From an uncultured Candidatus Saccharibacteria bacterium (lineage in GTDB: Bacteria > Patescibacteriota > Minisyncoccia > Phycocordibacterales > UBA6065), in assembly GCA_964368835.1 (NCBI GenBank), contig CAYJCZ010000003.1, positions 64,153 through 128,152 of the forward strand: 64,000 nt of DNA, in the 5' to 3' direction. Shown in pieces: positions 10,756-47,946 of this stretch. A program made the translations under genes and the position numbers. Every line of letters starts with the position of its first letter. Position 1 is the stretch's first letter. The notes beneath the pieces were generated by a model. That model did no database searches. It was not told the origin of the DNA and was given only the letters and a program-made list of their open reading frames with translations.

Positions 10756-10829
10756 TGCCGGATCGTCTAATGGTAGGACATGGGCCTTTGAAGCCTAGAA
10801 TCTTGGTTCGATTCCAAGTCCGGCAACCA
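10756..10829 (+). tRNA. tRNA-Gln (anticodon UUG)
   Basis: Cloverleaf folded by hand. Acceptor stem tgccgga/tccggca, anticodon loop cuUUGaa, T-loop gttcgattc, CCA encoded. Confidence 0.85.
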
Positions 10830-19866: not shown

Positions 19867-19915
19867 AAAACTTCGAGAGACAACTCGTAAAAACCCGAGA
19901 CTAAAGGCTCGGTAT

Positions 19916-19963
19916 CTGTAGCGAAGTGTAACTTCGCCTGATGAGTCCAAAAGGACGAAACAG
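19916..19963 (+). ncRNA. hammerhead ribozyme 8 (type III)
   Basis: cugu-A (GUA) site, stem I gcgaagu(guaa)cuucgc, CUGAUGAG, stem II guccaaaaggac, CGAAAC. Confidence 0.85.
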
Positions 19964-20012
19964 AATGTTCTTTAAATAATTTTTCTTCCCGCACTGTAAA
20001 CCAAATAGAAAA

Positions 20013-20195
20013 ATGAAAACAACTGCAATCATAGTCGGACTCGTGCTAGGCACCTGGGGATTAGTCGGCGGATACTTATTGATCCGTGATCGTCATAACA
20101 GCGTTGCCCCACGAACCATTGGTATCGTGAGTCTCGTTGGCATGATGAGTTCCGCGATCGTCTTGACGCTCGCAATCGCCACCATGGCAGAGTAA
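20013..20195 (+). CDS. cargo ORF 6: small membrane protein (60 aa, two TM segments)
   Basis: Hydrophobic ORF 50 nt after HHR8. Confidence 0.4.
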   Translation: MKTTAIIVGLVLGTWGLVGGYLLIRDRHNSVAPRTIGIVSLVGMMSSAIVLTLAIATMAE

Positions 20196-20228
20196 GACTA
20201 ATCGGTTCTAGGTTATCCTCAAAACCTA

Positions 20229-20277
20229 CTGTTTCGGAATGTGTATTCCGACTGATGAGCTCAAAAGAGCGAAACAG
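20229..20277 (+). ncRNA. hammerhead ribozyme 9 (type III)
   Basis: cugu-U site, stem I ucggaau(gugu)auuccga, CUGAUGAG, stem II gcucaaaagagc, CGAAAC. Followed by a 13 bp hairpin (20300-20347) and then the ORF. Confidence 0.85.
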
Positions 20278-20401
20278 AATGATCTTTAAAAAACTTCAAA
20301 CTTCGTCATAGCAGAAAGCGGCTACTCCTGGCCTCTCCCTGCTATGACGAAACCATTACGGCCAAGTCCTCTAGCGAAAACTAAATCAAGGATATAAACT
20401 C

Positions 20402-21212: not shown

Positions 21213-21239
21213 CCGTGTCTCACAAACACGGTTTTTTTA
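21213..21239 (+). terminator. rho-independent terminator closing the hammerhead operon
   Basis: aaaccgtgtctcacaaacacggttttttt. Confidence 0.8.
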
Positions 21240-21258
21240 TTGGTATACTTTAGATATG
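21228..21258 (+). promoter_or_regulatory. second copy of the extended -10 leaderless promoter (tttttattgGTATACTttagatATG)
   Basis: Identical at 23 of 24 nt to 10950-10979. Placed immediately before the NUDIX gene ATG. Confidence 0.55.
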
Positions 21259-24012: not shown

Positions 24013-24228
24013 TTTGCCTATAAGGGCTGTCGTTTGTGTTTCCATACGACCATTAATGACAGAACCGTTGGTTTTGCTAAGCGAGTGATGTTGGCAACGT
24101 GTAGACAACTATCCTTAGCAAAATAGCTAATCAGCGATACTATGTTGGACTGGTAACGGTTTTGGCGTTATCATAATCCATGACAATTCAATAGGTAAAG
24201 TAGCCTAACCCATCGAGCAATCGGTGGC

Positions 24229-25107
24229 ATGGTGAAAGTTAGTCGATCAAGCATAAAAAACCCGTCATGGGGTTGCTTGATCGCCGTATGGGGAAACCTG
24301 TACGAGGGACTTCGGTTCCTACCCGTGGCGGGCTTTTTGTTCGCCGCACATTACAAGCCGATCAAGCAAAATATGCACATTGTTTTTATCTTACTTTCCT
24401 TTTTGGCATTTCTAGGATTTTTTGCAGGACTCATTAAACCTTCGTGGTTTAAGATGAAATCCCGCAGACAATCATCAGGAGTGTTTGCCGGAACTTTCGT
24501 CCTTCTTATGATCCTTACGATCATCGCTTCTCCGGCAGAAGAAGTGCCTCCATCTGTTGTCGTTCAGTCAACTGCGCCAGCAGTAGCTCAACCTGTCGTA
24601 GCGACGGAGCCAGTTCAGCCGCCAAAGCCAAAAACCCGAGAAGAGCTCATTACGCAAAAGATAGAAGCTTCACTTGGGGCTACGACCAACACAAGCAAAC
24701 CGCGCGTAGTTTCCGTCGAACTCACAGCCTACAAATCATCTGAATTGAGTACTTATGGATATGCCTCGACCAATACCGTCCAAGGCGCATTCATCAAGAC
24801 AAATGCGAGCGAGAATCTCACATCGAATCTCCAGAAGATGACCTTGCATAAAGAAGCGGCAAAAATATTTCAAGACACTTTCTCATCTTTCTCACAGATT
24901 GGTGATGTGATTATTTGGGAAAGACTGCCCGTGAGCGACCAATATGGAAATCAAAAGGATGATACGGCGATTGTATATGCTATGAGCCGATCATTGTATG
25001 ACAAAATTAACTGGGCAAGCTTCTCATACACAACCTTGCCAGATCTCCTGAAGTCAGAGGGTCATACCGATGACCGAAATTCGTATTACGAAGCGATCCG
25101 ATTCTAG
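24229..25107 (+). CDS. membrane-anchored hypothetical protein
   Basis: 292 aa with TM helices near the N-terminus (a possible internal start at 24373), then a Pro/Thr/Val-rich linker and a C-terminal domain. Confidence 0.5.
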   Translation: MVKVSRSSIKNPSWGCLIAVWGNLYEGLRFLPVAGFLFAAHYKPIKQNMHIVFILLSFLAFLGFFAGLIKPSWFKMKSRRQSSGVFAGTFVLLMILTIIASPAEEVPPSVVVQSTAPAVAQPVVATEPVQPPKPKTREELITQKIEASLGATTNTSKPRVVSVELTAYKSSELSTYGYASTNTVQGAFIKTNASENLTSNLQKMTLHKEAAKIFQDTFSSFSQIGDVIIWERLPVSDQYGNQKDDTAIVYAMSRSLYDKINWASFSYTTLPDLLKSEGHTDDRNSYYEAIRF

Positions 25108-32722: not shown

Positions 32723-32925
32723 AGTGACACTCCAATATCCCATTCCTGTGTCACTTTTGTCACTTTCCGCTATCGCTCAAGACGGGTCGATTTGATACCA
32801 TAAACGACGTCTAAACGGCCTTGTGGGGTATGGTATGACATGGTTCTACCCCGAGGAGGCCAACAATTTGACTTTTTTGCAATTTATTGTAGTTTAAATC
32901 TGAAACAGATTTTGAACAGCAATAT

Positions 32926-33432
32926 ATGAACTCAAACTCTAACGATCCTTACACGGAAATAGCGACCGAAATTCTAGCAATGGTGGCAGTCGACCAGACA
33001 ATGAGAGAGATGGTGCTTAAAAAAGGCGATTTCTGGGACGAGACAGTAGATAATCTGAATACTCAACGAATGAAAAAGATTATCAAGGATATAGGGTGGC
33101 CAACAATCGGAAAAGTAGGACGAGACGTGTCTTATGGTGCATGGTTACTTGTCCAACACGCAGACAGAGACGTCGCCTTTCAAGAACAATGCCTTGAGAT
33201 AATCAAGTCTTTGCCTACAGTCGAAATCGTACCTCAGGCTATACCCTATCTGGAAGACAGGATTCGCGTTAATAAAAAACTCCCTCAAGTGTACGGAACT
33301 CAATTCCGAAACCTTGTTCCCTGTCCTATCGAAAACCCAGACAAAGTGGATGAAAGAAGGGGAAAGTTTGGACTTCCGAGTCTAGCCGAGGGTATTACGG
33401 CACACAGAAAAAAGTATCCGCCTACCAAATGA
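32926..33432 (+). CDS. hypothetical protein (168 aa)
   Basis: ORF with the gene-start motif upstream. Confidence 0.55.
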   Translation: MNSNSNDPYTEIATEILAMVAVDQTMREMVLKKGDFWDETVDNLNTQRMKKIIKDIGWPTIGKVGRDVSYGAWLLVQHADRDVAFQEQCLEIIKSLPTVEIVPQAIPYLEDRIRVNKKLPQVYGTQFRNLVPCPIENPDKVDERRGKFGLPSLAEGITAHRKKYPPTK

Positions 33433-33483
33433 AATGCGAGCCATATCCTAGAGATGTGGCTTTTTTATGCGGTACAAACTCAA

Positions 33484-33503
33484 ACATCGTCCCAGACGGC
33501 CAA
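33484..33503 (+). repeat. intergenic motif copy 1 (CATCGTCCCAGACGGCCAAC)
   Basis: One of at least eight same-orientation copies in 33.4-38.7 kb, usually 20-50 nt upstream of a + strand start codon. Confidence 0.7.
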
Positions 33504-33528
33504 CAACGAGTTTTGATATACTGCTGTT

Positions 33529-34164
33529 ATGGAAATTCGCAAGCCAGTATTGAACAAGTCGGTCATGGAAACCGAAGTTGCTATCGATAGCGATTCCCTT
33601 GTGATACGTGTCGAGTCCGCCTCGTTTAGTGGAGCAACCCTAGAAGATAAAAAATTGGATGAAATAGATTTTAACGAAGCAATTATAGACAAGCTGTCGC
33701 TACAGTCTTCAACGGTTTCCGAAATGAAGATTACTGACTCGATAATCAAGAAAGGCAATTTCACAGGAGTGAAAGCTGAGAACATTCTCATCGAAAGAGT
33801 GGAGATTGAGAACACTCGCCTGCAAGGCCTCAATCTCGCTCAAGCGAATATGAGAGATGTGGCCATAAAAGATTCTAAAGGTAGCGGTCTTTCCCTCAGG
33901 TTCGCCAAGCTGAAAAATGTCGCGTTCATAAATTGCGATCTGGAGGAATCCAATTTCCAAGGTGCAGAATTAAAGGATGTACTGTTCCGGAACTGCAATC
34001 TGAAAGGCTCACAATTTTCACAAGCCCAGCTGAAAGGAGTGAGTCTCAAAGGCTCGAACATAGAGAATATTTCGCTACACAAGGACTCTGTCCAGGGCCT
34101 GACTGTCACCACTAGCCAAGCGCTCTATCTCTCCTCTATTTTCGGCCTCACCGTTCAGGACTAG
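33529..34164 (+). CDS. pentapeptide-repeat protein (Qnr/MfpA-like fold)
   Basis: Tandem A(D/N)LxX pentapeptides through residues ~60-200 (NFQGAELKDVLFRNCNLKGSQFSQAQLKGVSLKGSNIEN). Confidence 0.8.
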   Translation: MEIRKPVLNKSVMETEVAIDSDSLVIRVESASFSGATLEDKKLDEIDFNEAIIDKLSLQSSTVSEMKITDSIIKKGNFTGVKAENILIERVEIENTRLQGLNLAQANMRDVAIKDSKGSGLSLRFAKLKNVAFINCDLEESNFQGAELKDVLFRNCNLKGSQFSQAQLKGVSLKGSNIENISLHKDSVQGLTVTTSQALYLSSIFGLTVQD

Positions 34165-34189
34165 CGATTACGCTGGCATAAGCTGGTTT

Positions 34190-34209
34190 CAACATCGTCC
34201 CAGACGGCC
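34190..34209 (+). repeat. intergenic motif copy 2
   Basis: caacatcgtcccagacggccaac. Confidence 0.7.
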
Positions 34210-34377
34210 AACTACGTTAAATTTATACCGCTCAAGTATGGTCATTTTTAAATGCACTTTGAACAAGCTGCACAGTCGACTCGCAAGCAAATACCTCTAA
34301 AGGTTGGTTTTTGCCTGCGATTTATGTAATGTTGACGAAATCATTTTTTTAATGTAATTTGAAAAAAGACATGCCTT

Positions 34378-34806
34378 ATGAAAAAACTCAAGTTCCTCAC
34401 TCTTAACGAAACGCGAGTGGCCATAGGAAGACTTGCCGCCGCTCCGCACGAAACAAAGAAACAAGTCGCAACATTCGAAGCGTATGCGGATCCAGACCTG
34501 ACGGAAGGCAAGCTTCCGCTCCAGTTCAAAGGAATCGTTTTGGTTCGTTTGGAAAGGAGCAACAACTTCGGCATCACTCATAGGGATTTGGCATCAGACT
34601 TTATGCATGAGGCCTATGGCAATAGGATTCAATACATCATGAGCTGCGAGCCGACTATTGGATGGATGATCAAAGCCTCTTCTGGATCAGCTGTAACACG
34701 ACTGTGCAGCTCTGCCTGCAAGCTGCTTGCCGTAATTGAACAGCTCAACATACGAAACCCATTATGGAATGATCTAAACTTCTATCATAAAATGGGCTGG
34801 AGATAG
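34378..34806 (+). CDS. hypothetical protein (142 aa)
   Basis: ORF only. Confidence 0.5.
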   Translation: MKKLKFLTLNETRVAIGRLAAAPHETKKQVATFEAYADPDLTEGKLPLQFKGIVLVRLERSNNFGITHRDLASDFMHEAYGNRIQYIMSCEPTIGWMIKASSGSAVTRLCSSACKLLAVIEQLNIRNPLWNDLNFYHKMGWR

Positions 34807-34879
34807 ATATCATTACCCCCGGCATAAGCCGTGGGTTTTTATATGCAATTTCTTATAATATAGAGTAAACGGATTCCTA

Positions 34880-34899
34880 CATCGTCCCAGACGGCCAAC
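34880..34899 (+). repeat. intergenic motif copy 3
   Basis: ttcctacatcgtcccagacggccaac. This copy sits between convergent genes, just before a terminator. Confidence 0.7.
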
Positions 34900-34906
34900 A
34901 TCAAAA

Positions 34907-34934
34907 AACCACTATCCGTTTTGGATAGTGGTTT
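34907..34934. terminator. bidirectional terminator overlapping the cysE 3' end
   Basis: aaccactatcc gttt ggatagtggtt with flanking A- and T-runs. Confidence 0.55.
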
Positions 34935-35460
34935 GAGCAATTACTCTTTGTGCCGGAGGTACGCCGATTACCGTTGATCTTGCGGGAATATCTTTAAGTA
35001 CAACCGCCCCCGCACCAATTCTGACCCCTTCTCCAATCACGATTGGGCCTAGCAACTTTGCACCAGTACCGACTACAGAGTTTTTCCTTATGGTTGGGTG
35101 ACGCTTACCGCGATCTTTCCCTGTGCCGCCCAGTGTTACTCCATGATATAAGGTCACATTATCTTCAACGATCGCCGTACCGCCAATAACTATACCCATT
35201 CCATGATCGATAAATATACCCTTACCAAGGGTTGCCCCTGGATGTATTTCAATCCCTGTTAGGAATCGAGAAAACTGTGAAATCAATCGAGCAAGAAGCC
35301 TAAGTTTTTTTCTATTCCACAGCCAATGGCTTATTTCATGAATCGCTAAGGCATGAAGACCCGGGTAGCAGAGCAATACCTCGATCAAGCTTTCTGCAGC
35401 TGGGTCTTTTTCAAGAACAGCACGAACATTCGCTGACATTTTATTGAGCATATGGTACAC
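34912..35460 (-). CDS. cysE: serine O-acetyltransferase (hexapeptide-repeat acetyltransferase)
   Basis: SAT N-terminal helical region followed by left-handed beta-helix hexapeptide repeats ([22 protein letters not shown]). Confidence 0.8.
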
Positions 35461-35685
35461 CTTTCTGTATTTGTTGGATTAAAAGAACAGCGAGCCCTTC
35501 AAAGGCTCGCTGTTAATAATTAGATAGACACGCAACAATCAACAGCCAACCCTTGATGAGTGACCGTTGCAACATGTTGAGATGCTTTTGCGCTGTCTGA
35601 GATTCATATTATGGACGATACCACATATTATTTTTTCTCTCAATGATATGTATTTATTCGTAAAAATAACTTAAAAAGATTCCTA

Positions 35686-35705
35686 CATCGTCCCGGACGC
35701 GCTTC
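35686..35705 (+). repeat. intergenic motif copy 4 (variant)
   Basis: ttcctacatcgtcccggacgcgcttc. Confidence 0.6.
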
Positions 35706-35739
35706 AAATACCTGTGTTATATTTATTGGCGTAATATTT

Positions 35740-36099
35740 ATGTCTAGCTTTATAGGCGCATACATCTCATTGCTTAGCAAAATTCCTGTCATAGGATTAA
35801 TTTTACTTGCTTCTGCATCTGTAATTCTAGGTGATTATGCAGCAAAGGCTTGGTCTACAAATAATAAAGGAATATATCTCCTTCTCGCATTTGCAGGATA
35901 TTTCTTCTCCGGTTTCTTTTATATCCCAACACTACTACGCGAAGGTCTTATTGTAACTTCAGTTATATGGGGCTTATTGAGCACTATTGGTTTTATTGTC
36001 ATTGGACTTCTGATATTTAAAGAAACCTTATCCGTAACACAAATAATTGCAGTAACATTCGGAATAATCTCTATTCTAGTTCTCACTATTTTAGATTAG
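35740..36099 (+). CDS. SMR/DMT-type small multidrug-resistance-like transporter (4 TM)
   Basis: 119 aa, four TM helices, size and topology of the SMR/EamA-half family. Confidence 0.65.
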   Translation: MSSFIGAYISLLSKIPVIGLILLASASVILGDYAAKAWSTNNKGIYLLLAFAGYFFSGFFYIPTLLREGLIVTSVIWGLLSTIGFIVIGLLIFKETLSVTQIIAVTFGIISILVLTILD

Positions 36100-36148
36100 A
36101 AAGTTCACGCTTGCTTTCAGGTGTGTTTAACAAATAAAAAAGACCTGT

Positions 36149-36502
36149 CTATAACAGATCTTTGAACGAGATGTTTGCGAAAATTCTTCTCAATCCTCTG
36201 TGAGCAAGATTCTCAGCAAGCAATTCCACGGCAGCTTCAGGTGCCACTGAATAGAAGATTGGTTCACCAACAACTTTCCATGTGTCCAATTTATCTACAA
36301 ATTCGTGACTAACAAAGTAATAGTGACAATCATCATCGTCATAGTAAACTCCAGAGACAGAAACACCAGTTGGAGGTGCTGAAATATGGAAGATGCGTGT
36401 CTGCTCTGAATCAATCTCCAAAGTTAACTTATTGGAAACCTTCTTTCTCACAACACCCTTACCGGCCAGGAATACCATCCAATACGAGTCAAAAGCTTTC
36501 AT
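36149..36502 (-). CDS. hypothetical protein (117 aa)
   Basis: ORF only. Confidence 0.45.
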   Translation of the reverse strand: MKAFDSYWMVFLAGKGVVRKKVSNKLTLEIDSEQTRIFHISAPPTGVSVSGVYYDDDDCHYYFVSHEFVDKLDTWKVVGEPIFYSVAPEAAVELLAENLAHRGLRRIFANISFKDLL

Positions 36503-36564
36503 CCGTTCCCTATTTTCAATAATTTCCTTAAAATGTCAATGAGATATTGCAAAACGCTTACAAC

Positions 36565-36583
36565 GTCGTCCGAGACGGCCAAC
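36565..36583 (+). repeat. intergenic motif copy 5
   Basis: caacgtcgtccgagacggccaac. Confidence 0.65.
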
Positions 36584-36610
36584 ATTGAAATTTCAGGTTA
36601 TAATTTTCAT

Positions 36611-37123
36611 ATGAATAAAGTTGCAGTGATTCTGGTAGACATGCAGGATTTTTTTCTTAAAAATCTTAAATCCAACTTAATAAAGGAGCTCGTTGCCAAT
36701 CAGCTCAAGATTATTAATTTTAGTATTGCTCACAACATTCCACTTATCGTTTTGGAATATAAAGCAGGAGGGATTCTGAGAGGTAAAACAACAAAGGGGT
36801 TGCAAGAAAAGATTCAGGATATATCAGGGGCAAGAGTTCTCATTAAAGAGAGTAATAGCGGCTTTACAAAGACCGGCCTGGATCAAATTCTAAAGGAAGC
36901 TAAAATTACAAAATTAGTGCTCATGGGAATCAATGCGAATGGGTGCGTACAAGATACCGCTATTGGTGCTTTGCGCAGAAAATTCAGCGTAATTACCTCA
37001 AAAGGAATAATCGCAAATACCTTCAATGGGAGCATGGAACTATCTAGAAAGAATAGGAACTGGTATACGATAAACACCAAATTCTTTGAAAATGTCGATG
37101 GTCTGCTCCAATCATTGAATTAA
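36611..37123 (+). CDS. isochorismatase-family cysteine hydrolase
   Basis: VAVILVDMQDFF Asp motif and a conserved Cys in NANGCVQDTA. Start set at 36611, after the motif, not the listed 36533. Confidence 0.75.
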   Translation: MNKVAVILVDMQDFFLKNLKSNLIKELVANQLKIINFSIAHNIPLIVLEYKAGGILRGKTTKGLQEKIQDISGARVLIKESNSGFTKTGLDQILKEAKITKLVLMGINANGCVQDTAIGALRRKFSVITSKGIIANTFNGSMELSRKNRNWYTINTKFFENVDGLLQSLN

Positions 37124-37131
37124 GGTTCCAA

Positions 37132-37150
37132 CATAGTCCAGACGGCCAAC
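37132..37150 (+). repeat. intergenic motif copy 6
   Basis: ccaacatagtccagacggccaac. Confidence 0.65.
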
Positions 37151-37197
37151 CAGTTTCAATTTAATTCATATAGCTCAGGAGGTGTTAGTATGTTGGT

Positions 37198-37467
37198 ATG
37201 GAAATATCAGATAACTCTCACAATAAAATAGAAGAGGTTTTGGCCATAATTTTCTCAGCACTTGTTCTAATAATGGCAGCGGATTGGTTTATTAGGGGCC
37301 GTATGAGTCTCGTGTCAGGCATTTTATTTATCATGATTATATGTCTTTCTTTTTTACCTCTCCGTAGATTTATAAAACAAAAAATGCCTGCTCTTATACC
37401 CCGAAAAGACATATCAATTTTATTAGTAATAATTTTCCTTGGTCTTACGGTTTTCTTTTCTATTTAA
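37198..37467 (+). CDS. small membrane protein (89 aa)
   Basis: Two or three TM helices. Confidence 0.4.
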   Translation: MEISDNSHNKIEEVLAIIFSALVLIMAADWFIRGRMSLVSGILFIMIICLSFLPLRRFIKQKMPALIPRKDISILLVIIFLGLTVFFSI

Positions 37468-37537
37468 TCTGCTATTACATAAAGAACAGCGAATTTTTCA
37501 TCGCTATTTGCATCAAAAGGAGGGTTACATTTTTAAA

Positions 37538-37553
37538 TCCAACACTGTCCTAG
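37538..37553 (+). repeat. intergenic motif copy 7 (short variant TCCAACACTGTCCTA)
   Basis: About 35 nt upstream of the 37588 ATG. Confidence 0.55.
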
Positions 37554-37587
37554 ATAGTCAATAAATATTTCGTGATATAGTTTTTAT

Positions 37588-38589
37588 ATGAAAAAAAGAT
37601 TGGTTATTTGCATTACTTTAATAATTTTAGCTATGTTTGCGATTGTTGTATTTTACAAAGACTACAGTACTTCGATGCGCCTAAAAGCGCTAAAAGAGCG
37701 CTGGCAATCTGCCTACCAATCTAAAAATGTGTTCGCAAAGCTTGAGCTCATGGATGACTATAAAAAAATTATTCTTGATCGATCTGAGAATATAAGGCTT
37801 CGTAAAATGGCGTTGATAGATTCATTGGGCACTTTTCGTATAAGCCCGGAGGGAATAGATGATGCAAATAAATCATCATGGACGGATGCATACATATTTA
37901 CTTTAAATAATTGTAGCGATTTTGGGCCAACATTGGGATGCGCGAGAGTGCTACAGTATCTTTATCTTGCAGATTACAATGATCCGAAACTGGATAGCTG
38001 GTATTACGAGAAGATGAAAGATGAAAGTTTGCCTGCGACAGATAGATCTTGGCTGGTATTAAATTTAACAAAGTATGTTGGATTGACGGAAAGGAATAGG
38101 CAAATTATTCAAAAATTTGCAAAAGATGATGTAAATTGGATTCCTTTAGAATTGGCATCTCTCGTTAAGACACACGAGGAAGCAATATTTATCCTTGATT
38201 TATATGCTCATCCGTCTTGTGATCCTTTTGTATATAAGTCTGGATTCTGCAATTCGTTTAAGCAGTACATGGGAAACGTGCCACCTTCATCTGATGTAAA
38301 GAAGCTTTATGCTGACGTGGTTCTCACCAAGAGTTGTAATAATGTTGATTATATTGCGAATCACTACGAATATTATGGATTATTCACAGGTAATGTGAGC
38401 GGTATTATGGTTGCCTGTTTTAAGAAAAATTTGATTACTAATTCTGCACAAAGGGTTATCTGGTTAGATTGGGCAGCGCAAAGATTTGTAAAGAATAGAG
38501 CAACTATGGGATGGGATAGTAATTTTCGTGAGCAAATAAGTCCATATCTTACAGGAGATGAGAAAACTAAATATTTAAATAGTTTTTAA
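37588..38589 (+). CDS. hypothetical protein with an N-terminal membrane anchor (333 aa)
   Basis: ORF with one TM segment near the N-terminus. Confidence 0.6.
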   Translation: MKKRLVICITLIILAMFAIVVFYKDYSTSMRLKALKERWQSAYQSKNVFAKLELMDDYKKIILDRSENIRLRKMALIDSLGTFRISPEGIDDANKSSWTDAYIFTLNNCSDFGPTLGCARVLQYLYLADYNDPKLDSWYYEKMKDESLPATDRSWLVLNLTKYVGLTERNRQIIQKFAKDDVNWIPLELASLVKTHEEAIFILDLYAHPSCDPFVYKSGFCNSFKQYMGNVPPSSDVKKLYADVVLTKSCNNVDYIANHYEYYGLFTGNVSGIMVACFKKNLITNSAQRVIWLDWAAQRFVKNRATMGWDSNFREQISPYLTGDEKTKYLNSF

Positions 38590-38598
38590 AAAAATAAG

Positions 38599-38614
38599 TC
38601 CAACACTGTCCTAT
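38599..38614 (+). repeat. intergenic motif copy 8 (short variant)
   Basis: gtccaacactgtccta, 7 nt before the 38621 ATG. Confidence 0.55.
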
Positions 38615-38620
38615 TAAAAT

Positions 38621-39106
38621 ATGAAAATTCATCCGGAAACAAGAATAGGGCATGTTCACTTAACGGTTGCAGATCTCGATCGATCATTAGCATTTTATCG
38701 AGACCTACTTGGTTTTGAGGTGACCGCTCGTTACGGGGACTCAGCGGTATTTTTGTCTGCGGGAGGATATCATCATCATATTGGACTCAACACATGGGCA
38801 GGTAAGGGCGTGACTCCGCCACCGCCAAATCATTCTGGGCTTTTTCATTTTGCTATTTTGTTTCCAACGCGACGTGAGCTGGCTGTCATATTAAAAAGGT
38901 TGATTGATGCAGGTTATCCATTCACAGGTTCTGCAGATCATGGGGTTTCTGAGGCACTTTATCTGAATGATCCTGATAATATCGGTGTTGAATTATATGC
39001 GGATCGACCTCGCTCAAGCTGGAAAGTTAAAAATGATGGGGAGGTAGAAATGGTCACAGAGGCACTCGATATTGAAAGTTTGTTGCAAGAACTAGATGAT
39101 AAATAG
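38621..39106 (+). CDS. VOC-family protein (glyoxalase/bleomycin-resistance/extradiol-dioxygenase fold)
   Basis: HVHLTVADLDRSLAFY and a paired betaalphabetabetabeta layout. Confidence 0.7.
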   Translation: MKIHPETRIGHVHLTVADLDRSLAFYRDLLGFEVTARYGDSAVFLSAGGYHHHIGLNTWAGKGVTPPPPNHSGLFHFAILFPTRRELAVILKRLIDAGYPFTGSADHGVSEALYLNDPDNIGVELYADRPRSSWKVKNDGEVEMVTEALDIESLLQELDDK

Positions 39107-39131
39107 TGTCTGACGCCTCTAACAAAGTTTT

Positions 39132-39551
39132 TTGCTACAATTTAAATATATGAAAAATACATATCTTAACTTACCCATTAGAAGCGTAGCTGCTACCGAC
39201 AAATTTTTCTCATCTCTAGGGATGAAAAAGAACGAACAGTTTAGTGGTCCAGGTGGTACAAATGTAATCATCAATGAAAACACCTATGTAATGCTCCTCG
39301 AGGACAATCGTTTCGCAGGTTTTATTGATGCCAATCCTGAAGTAATAAACAATAATCAAATTCTGTGCTTGCAGTTTGATACAAAGGCTGAAGTGGATTC
39401 CTTTTTTAATAAAGCGATTGCAGCCGGAGCTACAGATATGACAAAACCTGATCCAGAATCAGCAGCTTTTATGTACGATAAAGCATTCCGCGATATCAAT
39501 GGTCATATTTGGCAGATGTTTGTGTTCACAGCAGAAATGCCTAAGGCATAG
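39132..39551 (+). CDS. glyoxalase-like VOC domain protein
   Basis: 139 aa, VOC-like. Confidence 0.55.
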   Translation: MLQFKYMKNTYLNLPIRSVAATDKFFSSLGMKKNEQFSGPGGTNVIINENTYVMLLEDNRFAGFIDANPEVINNNQILCLQFDTKAEVDSFFNKAIAAGATDMTKPDPESAAFMYDKAFRDINGHIWQMFVFTAEMPKA

Positions 39552-39589
39552 AAGTTTCAACGGTGACCCTGAACAAACACCCTCGAACA

Positions 39590-40795: not shown

Positions 40796-41830
40796 CTATA
40801 CAAAGAGCCCCTGCTCTTTTTCGCCAGCTATCTCGAGGATCGCAAGCTCGAGAGGTAATTCTCTGATAGGAGAAATTCCGATGTAATCGTATGTACCGAG
40901 AAGCGATCGCAAAAGTTTTGAGTCTACTTTTGTAGAGATTTCTTGAATAAATTTCTTGTCTTCATCAGAAGCCTGAGATACAACATCCTCTGCGACGGAC
41001 ATTTTTACAAACAATGCCAAACGTATCATTGAAACAGTAAGCTCAAGAAAAAGCTTTGGATCAAATGACTGCGCACGGATTTTTGAGATAACCTCGAATG
41101 CAGCTTTACTATTCTTTTCTGCAAGTGCCTTTACAAACATTCGCACAAGCTCTGATTTTGGAGAACCGGTTGCTTCTTCGACATCTACCTTAGTAATTTT
41201 TTTCCCGTTCACTCCTGCGACAACGCGCTCCAATATTCCGTGAGTGTCACGAAACGATCCGTCACCTACGAGTGCCACAAGCTCTGCAGCGGCAGGCTCA
41301 ATACTGTAGCCTTCCTTTTTAGCTACGGCCGTTACAGTATCCTTGAGTATCTCAACCGTTGGACGCTTGAATTCAAATACCTGACAGCGAGAAACAATGG
41401 TCTCTGGGAGCTTGTGAACCTCAGTTGTAGCGAGAATAAATACGACGTGCTTTGGTGGTTCTTCAAGAGTTTTCAAAAGCGCATTGAACGCCTCTTTTGT
41501 AAGCATATGCACTTCATCTATGATGTAGACCTTGAATTTTGATTCGAATGGAAGAGTTGCGACAGCATCTCGAAGCGCGCGAATATCATCGATACCACGG
41601 TTTGATGCCGCGTCGATCTCATAAATATCATTTGCTGACGTTCCTATTTCAGATGCAAAAATGCGGGCAATGGAAGTCTTACCAATACCGCGTGAACCTG
41701 CAAAAAGGTATGCGTGAGCAACAGCCTCATTTTCGATAGCACCCTTCAGAGCCTTAACAACAGAATCTTGGCCAATTACTTCTTTAAAGTTTTGCGGACG
41801 ATATTTTCGGTATAGTACTTCGTGTGACAT
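40796..41830 (-). CDS. dnaX: DNA polymerase III subunit gamma/tau (short form)
   Basis: YRPQNFKEVIGQD...GSRGIGKTS Walker A, DEVHML, SRC motif. The 344 aa short form is typical of reduced genomes. Confidence 0.9.
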   Translation of the reverse strand: MSHEVLYRKYRPQNFKEVIGQDSVVKALKGAIENEAVAHAYLFAGSRGIGKTSIARIFASEIGTSANDIYEIDAASNRGIDDIRALRDAVATLPFESKFKVYIIDEVHMLTKEAFNALLKTLEEPPKHVVFILATTEVHKLPETIVSRCQVFEFKRPTVEILKDTVTAVAKKEGYSIEPAAAELVALVGDGSFRDTHGILERVVAGVNGKKITKVDVEEATGSPKSELVRMFVKALAEKNSKAAFEVISKIRAQSFDPKLFLELTVSMIRLALFVKMSVAEDVVSQASDEDKKFIQEISTKVDSKLLRSLLGTYDYIGISPIRELPLELAILEIAGEKEQGLFV

Positions 41831-42166
41831 GGATAGAGTATACCAAATAGAGTGGATTTACATAAAAGCAAAGCGGGCAGAGGGGTGATGGGAACCCTCT
41901 GCCCGCGTTAGGCGTATTACTCACACAATGTCAGCTATTTCTCTTTTATTTTAGCCTGCGATGTCAGGCTTTCATCCCAGTTCCATCTGACCAGGATAAA
42001 GAACAAATTGGTTTGGAAGACGATTAGGTCCGGTTGTAGAGCCATGAAGTGCCCTATCCTTGAAATGAACGTCTTCCTAACTACTGTGACAATACACCCG
42101 GCTGGACATGTTTGCAAGTTAGTTGTGCACAAAAAAACGGACGAATAAATTCATCCGTTGTAGGGC

Positions 42167-42595
42167 TCAGTGAACCCCTGCAAACTTTCGCTTTTCCTGT
42201 AGCTCCTTGAGGCGTTTCTCAGCCTCTTTATGAGCTTTGGTTTTCTTTTTTGGTGTGACCACTGTGGCTGATGGTTTGCCAATCTTTGCCATAGCCTCCT
42301 TTATCTCTTCATCCTCAAAAAGAAATGGATCTGCGTCCCCAACTTTTTTATAAAGAAAGACCTCGGCACCAAGTTGAAGATAATCCAAAATAATGGCTTT
42401 GGAATCCGCAAAGCTACGTTCGCCGCAGCTCCACATACTCCACACTCCATCACTGGTCTTTACCTCGTACCGTAACATGCCTTCATCAGCCGTATCATCT
42501 TGATTACCCGCAAGTGTCCTACCCACTCCTTTATGATGAATGTTTCGGCGTGCTCTAATGAGCCATTCAACCTTTTCACCTTTCGGTTTTTTCAT
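42167..42595 (-). CDS. hypothetical protein (142 aa) downstream of a long structured leader
   Basis: GGAGA SD before the ATG. Preceded by a minus-strand terminator/attenuator hairpin. Confidence 0.55.
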   Translation of the reverse strand: MKKPKGEKVEWLIRARRNIHHKGVGRTLAGNQDDTADEGMLRYEVKTSDGVWSMWSCGERSFADSKAIILDYLQLGAEVFLYKKVGDADPFLFEDEEIKEAMAKIGKPSATVVTPKKKTKAHKEAEKRLKELQEKRKFAGVH

Positions 42596-42667
42596 TGGTT
42601 CTCCGATTTGAGTGTTGATCTTGAAATCTGTTCCGCCCCAACCATACTATTTTGAAAATTGATTGTC

Positions 42668-42705
42668 CAGAAAAAAATCACCCGCTACTTTCGTAGCGGG
42701 TGTAG
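42668..42705 (-). terminator. minus-strand rho-independent terminator or attenuator about 70 nt upstream of the 42595 start codon
   Basis: Minus strand reads cacccgctacgaaagtagcgggtgattttttt. Confidence 0.6.
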
Positions 42706-43298
42706 AAGACTTCTGTTCAATATTCCTCAGTACTTTGCTTCTTTGGAGCTGAGGGGCCATTAAGTGGCCAAACTTTCATGATTGTGAGCGAGCCCATTGT
42801 TTCTCATTAAATCTCCGAAGAAATTTGATGTGAAGCTAGATAATTCTGAGGCTATCTAGTGTTTACTTTGGGTGTCCGACTAGCACACTACCTTTCTCCC
42901 TTTCGGGTTTTGTTTCTTTCCGTATATTCTCTTAGGGGGCAACCGGCATCACATTGTGCCGGCGAATTACACGGTCGTGTTCATACTGATGATTGATTGT
43001 CGCCTGCGGAATTGCAGGCGACTCTCGAGGCCGGCGCCGTCAGACGGGATTCAGCGCGCCGCGGGCGATGTCGATGGAATTCAAATGACTAACGCTGCGG
43101 TACTGCGGGGGACCTTTATTCATGGCGAGGTTCACTCCAGCAGTTCTAAAACATCGTGCGCAAACTTCAAATGAAGCCTGCAATAAAACACGAAATCAAA
43201 GAACTGGTTACTCAAGTATCATATCATACTATTCTAAATTGTCAACACAAAAACACGATTATTGATACTTGTCGAAAAATACCCTTATATAGAGCCAT
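42706..43298 (-). ncRNA. candidate large structured ncRNA or riboswitch-type leader (~600 nt)
   Basis: The largest intergenic gap in a dense genome. It holds several GC-rich perfect hairpins (ccggca...tgccgg, cgcctgc...gcaggcg) in AT-rich DNA and ends at the terminator. No protein-like ORF on either strand. Its class could not be assigned by eye. Confidence 0.35.
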
Positions 43299-44279
43299 TT
43301 AAACGATATCTCCTCGAGATTTGATGAAATCTTTTACCTTCTCCCCCACTTCTTTTGCATCTTTTGCCTCCATAAGCTCGGTTCGAAATTCCTTGGCACC
43401 TTCAAAGCCGTTTACGTACGCTTTGTAATGCTTTTTCATAATTGCAAAACTTTTTATGTCACCCAAAAGCTTTTCATAAAGCTTTGTATGCTCAACCATC
43501 ACCTCCAATTTCTCTTTTATAGTAGGAATTGTTTGCTTTCCGTGAAGCGACGAGAAAAGCCACGGATTTCCAAATATTGCCCGACCGAGCATAACGCCAT
43601 CGGCACCAAACTCCTGGGCTTTTGCTCGTGCATCGTCTAAATCTTTAACATCACCATTTCCCAATATTAAAGTTTGAGGAGAAATTTTGTTTCGCAATTC
43701 TATAACTTCACGAACATGTTCCCAACGTGCGGGGACAAGGGACATCTCCTTTCGAGTCCTACAATGAACAGTAAGCGCGGCCACACCCTCCTCTAGAATT
43801 TCAGGTATCCATGTAGCAATTTCATTTTTGTTGTACCCAATGCGAGTTTTCACAGAAATCGGCAGTTTTGGTGCACCTTCTTTTGCAGCACGTATAATTT
43901 CTCGTGCTAGTTTAGGATTCTTGATCATTGCCGCACCGCATCCCTGCTTTTCAATAGATCGGTCAGGGCAACCCATGTTTATATCAATGCCATCAAAACC
44001 AAGTTTCTGACAAAGTGCCGCTGCTTCGCGCATCTTTTCTGGCTTTGAAGAAAAAAGCTGAGCGACGATCGGTTTTTCTTTTTTAGTAAATTCCAGGTCT
44101 CGTACAAGCACTTTCCTCCCCTCTGAACAGAGACCGTCAGCAGACACAAACTCAGTCCAGAAAACATCTGGCTTACCATACTTTTCTATAATTCTTCGAA
44201 ATGCAGCATCGGTGACATCCGCCATTGGCGCGAGTACAAAGAAGGGTTTTTTGAGTTTTGCCCAGAATCCTAATTCCAT
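43299..44279 (-). CDS. dus: tRNA-dihydrouridine synthase
   Basis: TIM-barrel Dus motifs (LAPMADVTD, catalytic Cys in NMGCP). Confidence 0.9.
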   Translation of the reverse strand: MELGFWAKLKKPFFVLAPMADVTDAAFRRIIEKYGKPDVFWTEFVSADGLCSEGRKVLVRDLEFTKKEKPIVAQLFSSKPEKMREAAALCQKLGFDGIDINMGCPDRSIEKQGCGAAMIKNPKLAREIIRAAKEGAPKLPISVKTRIGYNKNEIATWIPEILEEGVAALTVHCRTRKEMSLVPARWEHVREVIELRNKISPQTLILGNGDVKDLDDARAKAQEFGADGVMLGRAIFGNPWLFSSLHGKQTIPTIKEKLEVMVEHTKLYEKLLGDIKSFAIMKKHYKAYVNGFEGAKEFRTELMEAKDAKEVGEKVKDFIKSRGDIV

Positions 44280-44295
44280 AGAAAGTCACTTTACC

Positions 44296-45162
44296 CTAGA
44301 TTTCTCCAGTGGTCGAGGATTTCATCTTATAGACAACCTTGTTACCTGAATCAATTTTGATGTAATCAAGTTCAGCCAAAAATTTTGCAAAATTTGGTGC
44401 GATTTTTGTATCCAAAACAATAGTCTCAAGATTGGCGAGCACTTTAGCTAAATCATCTTTGGTACTTACAATTATTTTACCTCCATCAAAAAGAGTAATT
44501 GTCATGTAACCATTTTCAAGTATTTCAGCCTCTACCGGTTTAAGCGAAAGCCTCTCTACTTCCTGCATAAAGAATTCCATCTTTTTAAATTCATCAGGTG
44601 GCAAAAAATTCTTGCCGAGAGGGTTTTCAGATATTAACCCCTTGTATACAAAACTTGAGCTTGTTGCCATCGACGAAAGGCAAACTCCTGCACCACAGCT
44701 AACGTGCGATGGGGCAAATACCATTCCAGCCTCATCAATGAGAAAGCATGAGGAACCATCGGCGTTGGAGCACCAACGGGCCGCCTCTTCCCTTTCTGTG
44801 ACAAACACAACAAGAGCATTGAGGCCACGCCGTGACACATCAACCCTCTTTACCGCAGGTAATTGTGCAAGAGTTTCCTCAATATCATCTTTTGGAAATA
44901 GAAAAGTATTTCGCTTTGAAAAAAGATAGCCGTAGTTGCCACTTATTTTCTCGAGCACAACGCTGCGCAAATCTGCCTCTGCAACTCGAGTGGCACCTTC
45001 AGTCACAATCTTTTCGATTGATAGTGAATTGAGCTGGCTAACAAACGAAAGTCCAGATACAACAATCGCAAGAGCGATAAAAGAATACAGAGACAAAAGA
45101 AATACCCGCCTGCGGCGCTTGGCAACGATCTTTTTCTGGTAGACCTTTACCTGCCCACGCAT
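44296..45162 (-). CDS. FtsQ/DivIB-like cell-division protein (TM segment plus POTRA domain)
   Basis: N-terminal basic segment and TM anchor, then a POTRA-like region. Confidence 0.55.
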   Translation of the reverse strand: MRGQVKVYQKKIVAKRRRRVFLLSLYSFIALAIVVSGLSFVSQLNSLSIEKIVTEGATRVAEADLRSVVLEKISGNYGYLFSKRNTFLFPKDDIEETLAQLPAVKRVDVSRRGLNALVVFVTEREEAARWCSNADGSSCFLIDEAGMVFAPSHVSCGAGVCLSSMATSSSFVYKGLISENPLGKNFLPPDEFKKMEFFMQEVERLSLKPVEAEILENGYMTITLFDGGKIIVSTKDDLAKVLANLETIVLDTKIAPNFAKFLAELDYIKIDSGNKVVYKMKSSTTGEI

Positions 45163-45166
45163 GGCC

Positions 45167-46429
45167 TTATTTAGTTATCTTATCCTTTCCGAAGTATGGT
45201 CTGAGTGCTTCTGGTATGCGGATTGATCCATCTGCTTCTTGGCTGTTTTCTACGAGGGATACGAGAATTCGAGGAGTTGGAATTGCGGTACAGTTGAGGG
45301 AATGAGCATAACGGAGCTTTCCTTCTGTATCTCGGTAACGAATATTAAATCGTCGGCACTGGAAATCATGGAAATATGAGGCAGAAGAAATTTCTCGATA
45401 TTTTCCTTCTTTTGGAACCCAAAGCTCAATATCGTATTTCTTTACCTGGCCTAGTCCAAGATCACCTCCGCAGTTTATAACCGTGTGATATGGAATGCCG
45501 AGAGATTCGATAAACTCCTCGGTGTTTCGATTGAGTTCTTCGTGGAGTTTTACAGACGTCTCGTGGCTTGCCTCGCACAAAACCACTTGTTCGAGCTTGT
45601 AGAATTCATGAACGCGAATAAGACCCTTCACATCTTTTGAGTGGCTGCCGGCTTCTCGTCTAAAGCAAGGAGAAAAACCAAGATACTTTATTGGAAACTG
45701 CTTTGCATCCAGTGTTTCTTCGGAATGAAGTGCCATAACAGGAACTTCAGCGGTACCTGCGAGTGCATCGCCATCTTGAGTCATATAGTAATCCTCTACG
45801 TCTCCAGGAAGATGCGCTGTACCGTACAGATTTTCCTTTCGAACAATGACAGGAGGGATAATTGGAGTAAATCCCCTCTTTGAAAAGAAATCCATCGCGT
45901 AGCTCCAGATTGCAAACGAAAGACGAGCGCCTTCACCTGTTAGGAAATACCCACGGAAGCCGTGCACTTTTGCACCGCGTTCAAAATCAACCATCTTCAA
46001 ATTCGTCATGATTTCAACATGATCCTTTGGTTCGAAAGTAAAAGCTGTTTTGTCGCCCCATACTTTGACCTCCTTGTTCTCTGCATCTGTAGCTCCATCT
46101 GGAACTGACATATCAGGAATATTCGGCACCTTAAGCATTAGTCCCTGCCACTCTTTCATTACTTCTTTAAGGCTTTCATCTTCAGCCTGAAGCTCTGTCT
46201 TAAGCTTCTTCATAGATTCAAGAAGCGATGCTTTTGTTGCAGCATCAACCTGAGGGAGTTTTGCAGAAACCGCGTTCTGCTCAGCTCTTTTTGCCTCAAG
46301 GGAAGTCTGAAGTGCCCTCCTCTTATCATCGAGTGCAATTAAAGCAGCAATGTCTATATCGACATGCTTCTTTTGTGCACCCGCTTGGACTAGATCCTTA
46401 TTATCCCTTATGAACTTAATATCAAGCAT
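45167..46429 (-). CDS. serS: seryl-tRNA synthetase
   Basis: N-terminal coiled-coil arm and class II motifs 1-3 (FRREAGSHSKD..., GLGQ). Confidence 0.95.
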   Translation of the reverse strand: MLDIKFIRDNKDLVQAGAQKKHVDIDIAALIALDDKRRALQTSLEAKRAEQNAVSAKLPQVDAATKASLLESMKKLKTELQAEDESLKEVMKEWQGLMLKVPNIPDMSVPDGATDAENKEVKVWGDKTAFTFEPKDHVEIMTNLKMVDFERGAKVHGFRGYFLTGEGARLSFAIWSYAMDFFSKRGFTPIIPPVIVRKENLYGTAHLPGDVEDYYMTQDGDALAGTAEVPVMALHSEETLDAKQFPIKYLGFSPCFRREAGSHSKDVKGLIRVHEFYKLEQVVLCEASHETSVKLHEELNRNTEEFIESLGIPYHTVINCGGDLGLGQVKKYDIELWVPKEGKYREISSASYFHDFQCRRFNIRYRDTEGKLRYAHSLNCTAIPTPRILVSLVENSQEADGSIRIPEALRPYFGKDKITK

Positions 46430-46471
46430 TTTAGATTTTCTTTAACTTACACATACTACAATACAACTCCA

Positions 46472-47329
46472 ATGAATTCCATTCAAACCCTGCTTCCCAA
46501 AGATTACCCTCACTTACTCAAACAAATATCAGGTTTACCTAAACAGCTCTATATAAGAGGAGAAATGCCGAGTGACGAATACACATTCCTTACTATTGTT
46601 GGATCACGTAGGTATACAGAATACGGAAAAGAGGCGGTTGAGATGCTTATAAAGAGCCTTACAGGTCTACCCGTGGTCGTCGTATCAGGTCTCGCGTTTG
46701 GTATAGATGCAATCGCCCACAAAGCGGCCCTGTCGGCGGGATTAAAGACAGTTGCGGTACCCGGATCGGGACTTTCGCCTGACGTACTCTACCCTGCTTC
46801 AAATCATGGACTTGCAAATATGATTGTTGAAGCAGGAGGTGCACTCGTTTCACCGTTTGAAAATGATACTGTCGGTGCGCCGTGGACATTTCCGGTGCGC
46901 AATAGAATTATGGCCGGCATGTCCCACGCAACACTCGTAATTGAGGCTGAAATAAAATCGGGAACACTTATCACTTCTAAACACGCCACGGAATTTAATC
47001 GAAATGTGTTTGCGGTTCCTGGATCAATCTTTTCCAAACAAAGTGCCGGACCACATATGCTTATCAGACTAGGCGCCACACCCATTACTACCGGTGATGA
47101 ACTTATCGAAGCATTAGGATTTAAAATTGAACAAAAGAAAATTACATTTGAGTACAAAGATTTGTCTGCAGATGAGATCAAGGTTCTTACGGTGCTAGAA
47201 AATCCCCTGTCCCGCGAGGAATTAATATTCAAAATGAACTCGGACGCGAGTGCTGTAAATTCCCTTATCTCACTTCTTGAAATTAAGGGTCTAATTCAAG
47301 AAACAATGGGAGAATTCCGCAAGGTTTGA
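46472..47329 (+). CDS. dprA: DNA-processing protein DprA (Smf)
   Basis: Rossmann-like DprA core (VVVVSGLAFGIDAIAHKAAL). Confidence 0.85.
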   Translation: MNSIQTLLPKDYPHLLKQISGLPKQLYIRGEMPSDEYTFLTIVGSRRYTEYGKEAVEMLIKSLTGLPVVVVSGLAFGIDAIAHKAALSAGLKTVAVPGSGLSPDVLYPASNHGLANMIVEAGGALVSPFENDTVGAPWTFPVRNRIMAGMSHATLVIEAEIKSGTLITSKHATEFNRNVFAVPGSIFSKQSAGPHMLIRLGATPITTGDELIEALGFKIEQKKITFEYKDLSADEIKVLTVLENPLSREELIFKMNSDASAVNSLISLLEIKGLIQETMGEFRKV

Positions 47330-47374
47330 CCTGGTGGAAATTTAGTTCATACTATCCCTTAGATTCCTTTCCCC

Positions 47375-47848
47375 ATGGATTACTCACCAGTCCTTTATTG
47401 CATTATCGCAGGACTATTCCTGCTTTGCTTTCGGCAACCCCTCATCAAGCTCTACAACCCATTTTACGGCTCACGGCTCCAAATAGTCATGAAATGTAAG
47501 GGCCGTTGCGGAGACACTATCTATATTTTTCGCTGGCGGCCTTATATCGAGAAAGATGATACCCCTGTTTGGGAGATGGGAAAATGTGATATCAGGTTTG
47601 CTTCTGAACAAGATTTAAAGGATCAAATCAGCAACCCCAAACTCCTCAAAAGCTATTCGATTAGCACGTGGGACGACAACCGGGTGATAACTCTGGAAGT
47701 AAACAACGTCCTGCCACATGAGGTCTACGTAAATCATCGCATTCCGAACAATTCGATGGATCTCTATGCTGGGATTCGGAGTTCTCGTGCACTACAACGA
47801 AAAGAGTTCGGCCCAGCTCCTTCTGCAATTCAAATTAAGGTAGGTTAA
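47375..47848 (+). CDS. hypothetical protein (157 aa)
   Basis: ORF followed by a terminator-like hairpin. Confidence 0.5.
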   Translation: MDYSPVLYCIIAGLFLLCFRQPLIKLYNPFYGSRLQIVMKCKGRCGDTIYIFRWRPYIEKDDTPVWEMGKCDIRFASEQDLKDQISNPKLLKSYSISTWDDNRVITLEVNNVLPHEVYVNHRIPNNSMDLYAGIRSSRALQRKEFGPAPSAIQIKVG

Positions 47849-47946
47849 TCTGCCAGGCCGCGCGTACACGCGCGGCCTTTTTTATTTCATATTTCCACTT
47901 TATTTTAAACAAGAAATTTGCCAAACGTTTTCGCATCATGTAATAC

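Follow-up and report, generated by a model that had tools for sequence, protein, structure and literature searches.

A repeated 28-nt motif as the likely boundary site of a tRNA-Gln-anchored, integron-like cassette array in Candidatus Saccharibacteria

Introduction

The attC sites of integrons are imperfect inverted repeats of 55-140 bp with the layout R''-L''...L'-R' and form single-strand hairpins. The sites of canonical large serine recombinases (LSRs) consist of two quasi-symmetric half-sites around a central dinucleotide, and canonical serine integrases recombine only attP with attB when no directionality factor is present and do not join two attB-type sites (B x B). The half-sites of serine integrases are read by two domains, and the distal zinc-ribbon motif lies 5 bp further out in attP than in attB (PMC3783163). 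In the staphylococcal cassette chromosome (SCC, SCCmec), some units encode the Ccr large serine recombinases, and tandem recombinase-less units are mobilised in trans (PMC11470126). Tycheposons are islands seeded by tRNA genes, a minority of which use large serine recombinases (10.1101/2020.12.28.424599). Here, we describe a repeated motif and the gene array that it divides in a 64,000-nt stretch of DNA from an uncultured Candidatus Saccharibacteria bacterium (GenBank assembly GCA_964368835.1, contig CAYJCZ010000003.1, positions 64,153 to 128,152, forward strand), which is referred to as the window throughout.

Each copy of the motif is the 3' terminal 28 bp of a cassette of 0.4-1.3 kb that usually carries a single gene in either orientation. 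The copies are very probably cassette-boundary recombination sites. It is likely that they are LSR attachment (att) half-sites bounding a tRNA-anchored, integron-like cassette array, and a conserved LSR family is favoured, with less assurance, as the enzyme that acts on them. No description of such a system was found in the searchable literature on integrons, cassettes and serine recombinases in Saccharibacteria, Patescibacteria or the Candidate Phyla Radiation (CPR).

The motif and its arrangement

An initial annotation of this DNA reported eight copies of a 23-mer, all on the + strand, two of them short variants. All eight are present in the sequence, as are the CGTC-CCA-GACG dyad and the two CCAAC direct repeats that it described, and the repeated unit proved to be longer, with the 28-nt consensus GGTTCCAACATCGTCCCAGACGGCCAAC. 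This unit was defined from 25 distinct copies taken together, some in the window and the others in related loci. Its edges are sharp: an A at -5 is near-invariant, AA follows directly, and conservation ends there. The window holds six clear and two degenerate copies, all within 33.4-38.6 kb. With up to 3 mismatches (<=3), the 23-mer matches four times in the window and not once in 100 shuffles. A profile of the copies finds six significant ones, at 33480, 34185, 34872, 35678, 36558 and 37124, and the rest of the 64 kb is without a comparable match. Both short variants are genuine degenerate copies, since the score of the one at 37535-37562 was reached by 0/500 shuffles and the one starting at 38596 has p=0.004.

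The intervals between copies hold mostly one gene each, in both orientations. Next to same-strand genes the motif begins 0-65 nt past the preceding stop codon, and next to opposite-strand genes the terminator of the converging gene often lies directly 3' of the motif. The earlier description of the copies as lying upstream of a start codon is correct and is half of the picture, as they lie equally just past the preceding stop codon and also flank minus-strand genes. The conserved block of 28-35 nt has no inverted partner, DNA of the motif region folded in 81-nt windows no better than its shuffles (z -1.1 to +0.3), with no attC-like hairpin, and Rfam gave zero matches over the array at gathering and permissive thresholds.

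Two known repeat types were considered and rejected. The 28-nt repeat length would fit a clustered regularly interspaced short palindromic repeat (CRISPR) array, but the intervals of 378-1260 bp hold whole genes rather than spacers of 25-50 nt. Xer/dif (pdif) modules have 28-bp sites with two inverted 11-bp arms around a 6-bp spacer and are flanked by sites of opposite orientation. This 11-6-11 layout does not apply, as the motif has no such inverted arms and every copy points the same way.

Cassette exchange between close relatives

Three contigs from close relatives (L063, L064 and L065) were reached through near-identical holB proteins. L065 is 95-99% identical to the window (blastn), and L063/L064 are 80-87% identical. 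The DUF6624 cassette, which is first in the window array, is 99% identical in L065. There it is joined to a tRNA-Gln gene ending in GGCAAC, whereas in the window it is joined to a conserved anchor element ending in GGCCAAC (junction J1), and the 22,037 bp at window 10828-32864 are absent from L065. Past this cassette and an identical motif, the window continues with a pentapeptide-repeat cassette and L065 with an unrelated one, and homology breaks exactly after CAAC (J2). The hexapeptide cassette is common to both (97%) from the first base past CAAC, and the motif copies on its left differ (J3). Homology with L065 ends at 36102, where L065 has a motif variant (J4), and window 36103-39119 is also missing from L065. 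Two units have been replaced by two others between strains that are 95-99% identical. The isochorismatase cassette (87%) is second in the L063/L064 array and seventh in the window, with different neighbours on both sides (J5). In both places it ends 3' in the same private 27-nt variant of the motif (ATAGTCC-AGAC), which is copy P7 of the window.

The strain breakpoints fall directly after CAAC, the motif copy moves with the cassette on its left, and array content differs between close relatives. From the exact junctions and the travelling motif variant it follows that a cassette is cargo plus a 3' motif and that exchange occurs at CAAC. The initial annotation had proposed a comparison of strains for cassette gain or loss at the motif boundaries, and the breaks in L065 and L063 strongly support its alternative reading of the copies as cassette boundaries. 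At J1, the tRNA-Gln end and the anchor end have identical runs of only 4-6 bases, and homologous recombination therefore cannot explain the 22-kb difference between the window and L065.

Both flanks of the array are also found in the metagenome-assembled genome (MAG) contig L005 of Saccharibacteria, at 73% and 86% identity, and between them only the motif copies match; synteny resumes at window 39591. No cassette common to distant arrays was found by tblastx, apart from those of overlapping contigs.

Array ends at tRNA-Gln and its mimic

The last 23 nt of the tRNA-Gln of the window (10805-10827) read GGTTCGATTCCAAGTCCGGCAAC. This site is unoccupied in the window and is followed by its native right flank, CAAGTTGAGG. 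The 3' 23 nt of the anchor (32842-32864), GGTTCTACCCCGAGGAGGCCAAC, mimic the tRNA-Gln 3' end, and the anchor 5' block, TCGCTCAAGACGGGTCGATTTGAT, is the native sequence 3' of tRNA-Gln in other genomes. In the window and L005, the array begins directly after the anchor, and in L065, L063, L036, L041 and L044 cassettes start directly after the GGCAAC of tRNA-Gln. At the other end, the last motif copy in L003, L038 and L044 is followed by CAAGTTGAG...TATATCGCTC, the sequence found after the unoccupied tRNA-Gln in the window. Since the last motif copy is joined to native downstream sequence of tRNA-Gln, the units were inserted at the boundary after CAAC. ARAGORN found no tRNA in the anchor, and it showed no covariation and z about 0 in RNAalifold and single-sequence folds.

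The gene order holB - Dus - SerRS - DprA - TopA by the tRNA-Gln/array locus (window 40796-50199) is conserved with Paceibacteria (L052, L053 and L059). The array runs toward holB in the window and away from holB in these three contigs, and this opposite direction suggests an inversion at the locus.

Geometry of the half-sites

A 14-nt inner module, CCnAGnnnGnCAAC, and an outer GGTTC are common to the tRNA-Gln end, the anchor and the motif. In tRNA-Gln and the anchor, a 4-nt linker separates GGTTC from the module, for a total of 23 nt, as against a 9-nt linker and a total of 28 nt in the motif. Because GGTTC is shifted 5 nt outward in the motif, the motif looks like an attP-type left half-site and the tRNA-Gln end like an attB-type left half-site. 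If crossover takes place at the CA of CAAC, GGTTC would occupy positions ~21-25 of the motif, as against ~16-20 of the tRNA end. The nine-base stretch inward from GGTTC would then span ~17-25 and ~12-20, respectively, near the published 16-24 and 11-19. Moreover, motifs and tRNA ends covary, GCAGC occurring with CCAGC and GCAAC with CCAAC.

The large serine recombinase family

The first unit after the anchor in L038 contains an LSR gene, which abuts the anchor mimic. This LSR has >1700 homologues of ~500 aa (E <= 1e-30). The best 120 are 57-76% identical to it, and the named ones among them are Patescibacteria. An LSR gene encodes Resolvase, Recombinase and zinc-ribbon domains. Seven homologues on independent contigs (L045, L049, L052, L055, L059, L060 and L061) were examined, and in all seven the 3' end of the LSR gene overlaps an intact tRNA-Gln on the opposite strand. 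A gene for a rolling-circle Rep usually precedes the LSR, followed by cargo that includes restriction-modification, Thoeris TIR or CBASS-like genes. At six of the seven loci, one motif variant is present 4-7 kb off on the tRNA strand; L059 is cut too near the LSR gene to show it. L038 and L010 match this layout, and over these eight loci (the six, L038 and L010) the motif copy is 3-8 kb away, on the tRNA strand wherever the tRNA is in view. A second tRNA-Gln 3' fragment, which would form a partial-tRNA repeat, was not found in any LSR locus.

The LSR frames extend 13-61 nt antisense into tRNA-Gln or the anchor, in L045, L049, L052, L060 and L061 (11449-11509), in L055 (11449-11461) and in L038 (2866-2884). 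As the frame crosses the attachment junction, the C-terminal tail of the recombinase would change on excision.

Distribution of the motif in other genomes

Searching 20 bases of the motif against one genome per species returned 34 loci. Most of these (29/34) are single matches in high-GC genomes without extension. The other five lie in Patescibacteria assemblies (named Paceibacterota or Saccharibacteria), extend perfectly into the unsearched 5' bases and recur there 2-4 times on one strand. Nine metagenome contigs with 38-52% GC show the same pattern. The perfect 28-mer occurs beside unrelated genes in assemblies named Paceibacterota and Saccharibacteria and in metagenome contigs. Across all loci, the copies are one-stranded per locus and spaced by 378-1260 bp (median 708). 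Viral contigs, phage records and plasmid records gave no real match.

Proposed mechanism and its alternatives

A cassette would be made up of three parts: the site, which forms its 3' end, a promoter-like element, and cargo that is usually a single gene and often has a terminator. Cassettes would be stacked head to tail 3' of a B-type site, formed by the final 23 nt of tRNA-Gln or by the mimic in the anchor, through exchange inside or just past the common CAAC. The enzyme would probably come from the conserved Patescibacteria LSR family, encoded in 3-8 kb elements integrated at tRNA-Gln, which often carry the rolling-circle Rep and whose distal end would be one motif copy. The cassettes that lack a recombinase would probably be mobilised in trans. 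Patescibacteria may then possess a serine-recombinase counterpart of the integron, in which single-gene cassettes with their own promoters and attP-type 28-bp ends are captured at tRNA-Gln or a decoy by an LSR with relaxed pairing (P x B, P x P and B x B); this fullest form of the proposal is put forward tentatively, at a little under an even chance.

Several points weigh against the assignment of the array to this LSR family. A conserved right half-site, ...CCGTTTTTAGGTGC, is present in LSR-bearing elements only and absent from gene-only cassettes, so that free circles of the latter would offer only half a canonical attP. The site shows little dyad symmetry. The difference between the window and L065 implies exchange between two B-type sites. 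The enzyme would need to be permissive, like Ccr of SCC elements. The LSR encoded in the window (22717-24108, -) is only 34% identical to the family, and its end is without a tRNA or motif; it is a different, prophage-type enzyme. Neither the window nor the portions of L005, L063 and L065 in view contain a cognate LSR, and the window has no remnant of an LSR-side half-site. The array therefore relies on an enzyme encoded elsewhere or is currently static. A second, hypothetical route would start with the integration at tRNA-Gln of an LSR element that contains a motif copy; excision through this internal copy would then leave the distal cassette in place, and only standard reactions would be needed.

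It is unlikely that the boundary sites are used by another enzyme encoded elsewhere, such as an integron- or Xer-type tyrosine recombinase, and that LSR elements share only the tRNA-Gln hot spot. The inferred exchanges of motif with tRNA end, motif with motif and B-type with B-type site show the permissiveness that is typical of tyrosine recombinases but foreign to canonical serine integrases, and Saccharibacteria-type arrays have no cognate LSR nearby. However, no Phage_integrase-type domain was found among ~60 window ORFs or in the array loci scanned, with small ORFs only partly scanned. Likewise, the site has no inverted arms around a spacer of 6-8 bp, and the sole repeat that bounds LSR elements is the motif itself, which fits LSR half-site geometry.

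Less probable still is that the array consists of the remains of full-size LSR elements that were inserted one after another at tRNA-Gln, each reduced to one cargo gene and a distal att half-site and now immobile. The increasing degeneracy of the distal copies in the window would agree with such decay, as would L060, where an LSR element is followed by two motif-bounded genes and then by small genes without motifs. However, dozens of units have the same tight layout, with the motif shortly past the stop codon and the next unit starting right after CAAC, which random deletion would not repeat. The isochorismatase unit is intact at another array position in L063, and units have been swapped two for two between nearly identical strains.

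The initial annotation preferred an operator or promoter element of a regulon under a local TrmB- or LexA-type regulator, and this reading is now very improbable. Copies do lie 24-60 nt 5' of several plus-strand start codons, and TG-extended -10-like boxes occur ~10-20 nt beyond the copies at several plus-strand genes. However, genes that lack the motif are preceded by the -10-like box TTGGTATACT as well (D8/D10). A TTTGGTATAMT box (TG-extended -10) is found 5-25 nt 5' of start codons at 10955-10979, at 21234-21258 and at many motif copies (e.g. 33511-33522). This box seems to serve the organism as its generic promoter, which accounts for the promoter-like sequence after many motif copies. A generic sigma-70 promoter and terminator scan was not above shuffles and is uninformative for the TG-extended -10 promoters here. 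The orientation of the motif is constant whichever way the adjacent gene points, and its position after stop codons and before converging terminators argues against an operator. It is confined to one array in 64 kb and is 100% conserved between CPR classes beside unrelated genes, and L065 keeps an array without the segment that encodes both regulators.

A role in RNA (tRNA-like processing signal, terminator or ribozyme part) or as a homology patch for RecA-mediated swapping after natural transformation could draw on the copies right after stop codons, the likeness to the tRNA 3' end and the DprA encoded in the window, but it is the least credible reading. No Rfam match or fold beating shuffles exists, and natural motif variants in L003 disrupt the small hairpin with no compensating change. 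In minus-strand cassettes, the transcript does not include the motif, and the identical runs at the recombined tRNA and anchor ends are too short for homologous recombination.

Cassette contents and the 22-kb segment

The features of the window are listed in Table 1, together with the RNA elements of two other contigs. The cargo of the array includes resistance-type genes, namely an acetyltransferase, glyoxalase/bleomycin-resistance folds and a pentapeptide repeat. A search for homologues of the 142-aa protein of cassette 3, made to trace its mobility, matched only the protein itself. Copy P4 has diverged in its 3' third. A possible relic site at 36103-36132 between cassettes 5 and 6 is not significant on sequence alone, and the same is true of two weak relic sites at ~39105-39127 and 39553-39578 (p~0.08-0.09).

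Table 1. Coordinates of the tRNA-Gln gene, the anchor, the array cassettes and associated elements (window positions unless a contig is named; P1-P9, motif copies).
Feature	Coordinates	Strand	Contents and evidence
tRNA-Gln(UUG)	10756..10829	+	ARAGORN and Rfam
22,037-bp segment	10828..32864	+	starts with native tRNA-Gln downstream sequence, ends with anchor half-site; not in L065
LOOT RNA, window	24202-24320	+
LOOT RNA, L052	9440-9555
LOOT RNA, L055	763-883, 8739-8851, 18397-18510
Anchor element	32770..32864	+	~95 nt, conserved; alignments; 86% identical in Saccharibacteria MAG L005
Cassette 1	32865..33504	+	DUF6624 gene 32926-33432 (Pfam), terminator hairpin, P1 33477-33504
Cassette 2	33505..34212	+	pentapeptide-repeat protein 33529-34164, P2 34185-34212
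Cassette 3	34213..34899	+	142-aa orphan protein 34378-34806, P3 34872-34899; not in L065
Cassette 4	34900..35705	+	hexapeptide/serine-acetyltransferase-like gene 34912-35460 (-), own terminator and upstream leader, P4 35678-35705
Cassettes 5 and 6	35706..36583	+	119-aa membrane protein 35740-36099 (+), 117-aa protein 36149-36502 (-), P6 36556-36583
Cassette 7	36584..37150	+	isochorismatase, ATG 36612-37123, P7 37124-37150
Cassettes 8 and 9	37151..38615	+	89-aa membrane protein 37198-37467, degenerate P8 37535-37562; 333-aa protein 37588-38589, half-copy P9 38596-38612
Cassettes 10 and 11, probable older	38616..39578	+	two glyoxalase-fold genes 38621-39106; 39132-39551 (Pfam)

Just 5' of the hexapeptide/serine-acetyltransferase-like gene, a 22-codon ORF with tandem Cys codons, MNLRQRKSISTCCNGHSSRVGC, lies at 35486-35607 (-) and is followed by a strong terminator-like hairpin (35514-35486). 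By its sequence, this leader of cassette 4 looks like a cysteine-sensing leader-peptide attenuator carried within the cassette.

The 22-kb segment contains ribozyme repeats, a TrmB gene, an HD gene, two APH genes and two NUDIX genes. It also has a prophage-like block with the unrelated-type LSR described above, a LOOT RNA, a terminase, a methylase, a LexA/S24 repressor and an M23 peptidase (Pfam). The left end of the segment repeats part of the anchor 5' block (CTCAAG..TCG.TTGATAC, ~10845-10860 and 32775-32798). Probably the segment represents a composite island that was inserted into the anchor or beside it.

LOOT RNA (RF03000, 74-83 bits) is found just 5' of LSR genes or a Rep-LSR pair in the window, L052 and L055. 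The window copy is 94 nt from the start of the LSR gene and divergent from it, and L055 has three LSR genes and three LOOT copies. L052 and L055 are unrelated Patescibacteria loci, and the pattern suggests that LOOT is a component of LSR-bearing mobile elements.

Seven type III hammerhead matches lie at 15474-20280 (+), just under the Rfam gathering score (E 1e-8 to 3e-5), and a type-P1 twister lies at 18926-18998 (E 1e-10). These ribozyme matches sit within longer direct repeats (families D1-D7) in a stretch with few long ORFs. A 50-nt piece of one of the repeats (18369-18418) recurs with 90% identity inside an array cassette of L065. The resemblance to hammerhead stem I noted earlier for the array motif is coincidental, the real hammerheads being those at 15.4-20.3 kb.

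Significance

To our knowledge, little is known about the routes of gene acquisition in CPR/Patescibacteria, whose genomes are tiny. If the proposal is true, these reduced genomes would have a dedicated accessory-gene locus with fast turnover that is shared between classes, and a cassette-capture locus by tRNA-Gln, common to Saccharibacteria and Paceibacteria, would explain strain-level accessory variation. The integron principle would then have arisen a second time, through an independent mechanism. In addition, the LSR-bearing elements carry defence-type genes, including restriction-modification, Thoeris TIR and CBASS-like systems. A short defined site, together with a large conserved LSR family and a predicted attP/attB pair, is a potential integration tool. 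Saccharibacteria can now be manipulated genetically and are among the possible hosts for such a tool.

Comparison with known systems

The array resembles integrons in that mostly single-gene cassettes are arranged with a site at each 3' end and one fixed anchor site, and in its rapid turnover between strains. The cargo is also typical of integron cassettes, with a pentapeptide repeat, an acetyltransferase, a glyoxalase/bleomycin-resistance fold, an isochorismatase, small membrane proteins and orphans. In contrast to integrons, the site here is a 28-bp double-strand-type site without an attC hairpin or R''/R' inverse cores, and the anchor is a tRNA end rather than attI. Cassettes here also appear to carry their own promoters and terminators, in both orientations. 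Of the integron-like cassette boundaries suggested by the initial annotation, the boundary sites are strongly supported by the strain comparison; the locus itself is not an integron, as no attC-type hairpin and no integron integrase were found.

The sites have the two-module half-site of phage serine integrases (A118/LI, Bxb1 and phiC31), with the distal module 5 bp further out in attP (PMC3783163), and the recombinase gene likewise lies beside one junction. Unlike those of the phages, the gene-only cassettes conserve the left half-site alone, and exchanges of the B x B and P x P types are implied.

As in tycheposons and other tRNA islands, a tRNA seeds a variable island in which successive integrations push older material outward, and integrase-bearing elements with replication genes stand alongside integrase-less remnants. 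The repeats of those islands are partial tRNA copies and their units are multi-gene, whereas here a 28-nt non-tRNA repeat bounds mostly single genes.

SCC elements are similar in that units lie in tandem at the 3' end of one conserved gene, are bounded by direct att repeats and only in some cases carry a serine recombinase, and in their cargo of accessory, resistance and defence genes. In contrast, the target here is tRNA-Gln or its mimic and not rlmH, and units are 0.4-1.3 kb with a single gene (3-8 kb with an LSR) compared to 20-60 kb. The repeat here is a 28-bp attP-type half-site that is 5 nt longer than the target half-site. The hosts here are Patescibacteria, and the LSR family, often found with a rolling-circle Rep, is contextually unrelated to Ccr. 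In function, the system is an integron-like cassette array; in mechanism, its nearest counterparts would be SCC composite islands and tRNA-seeded islands, tycheposons among them.

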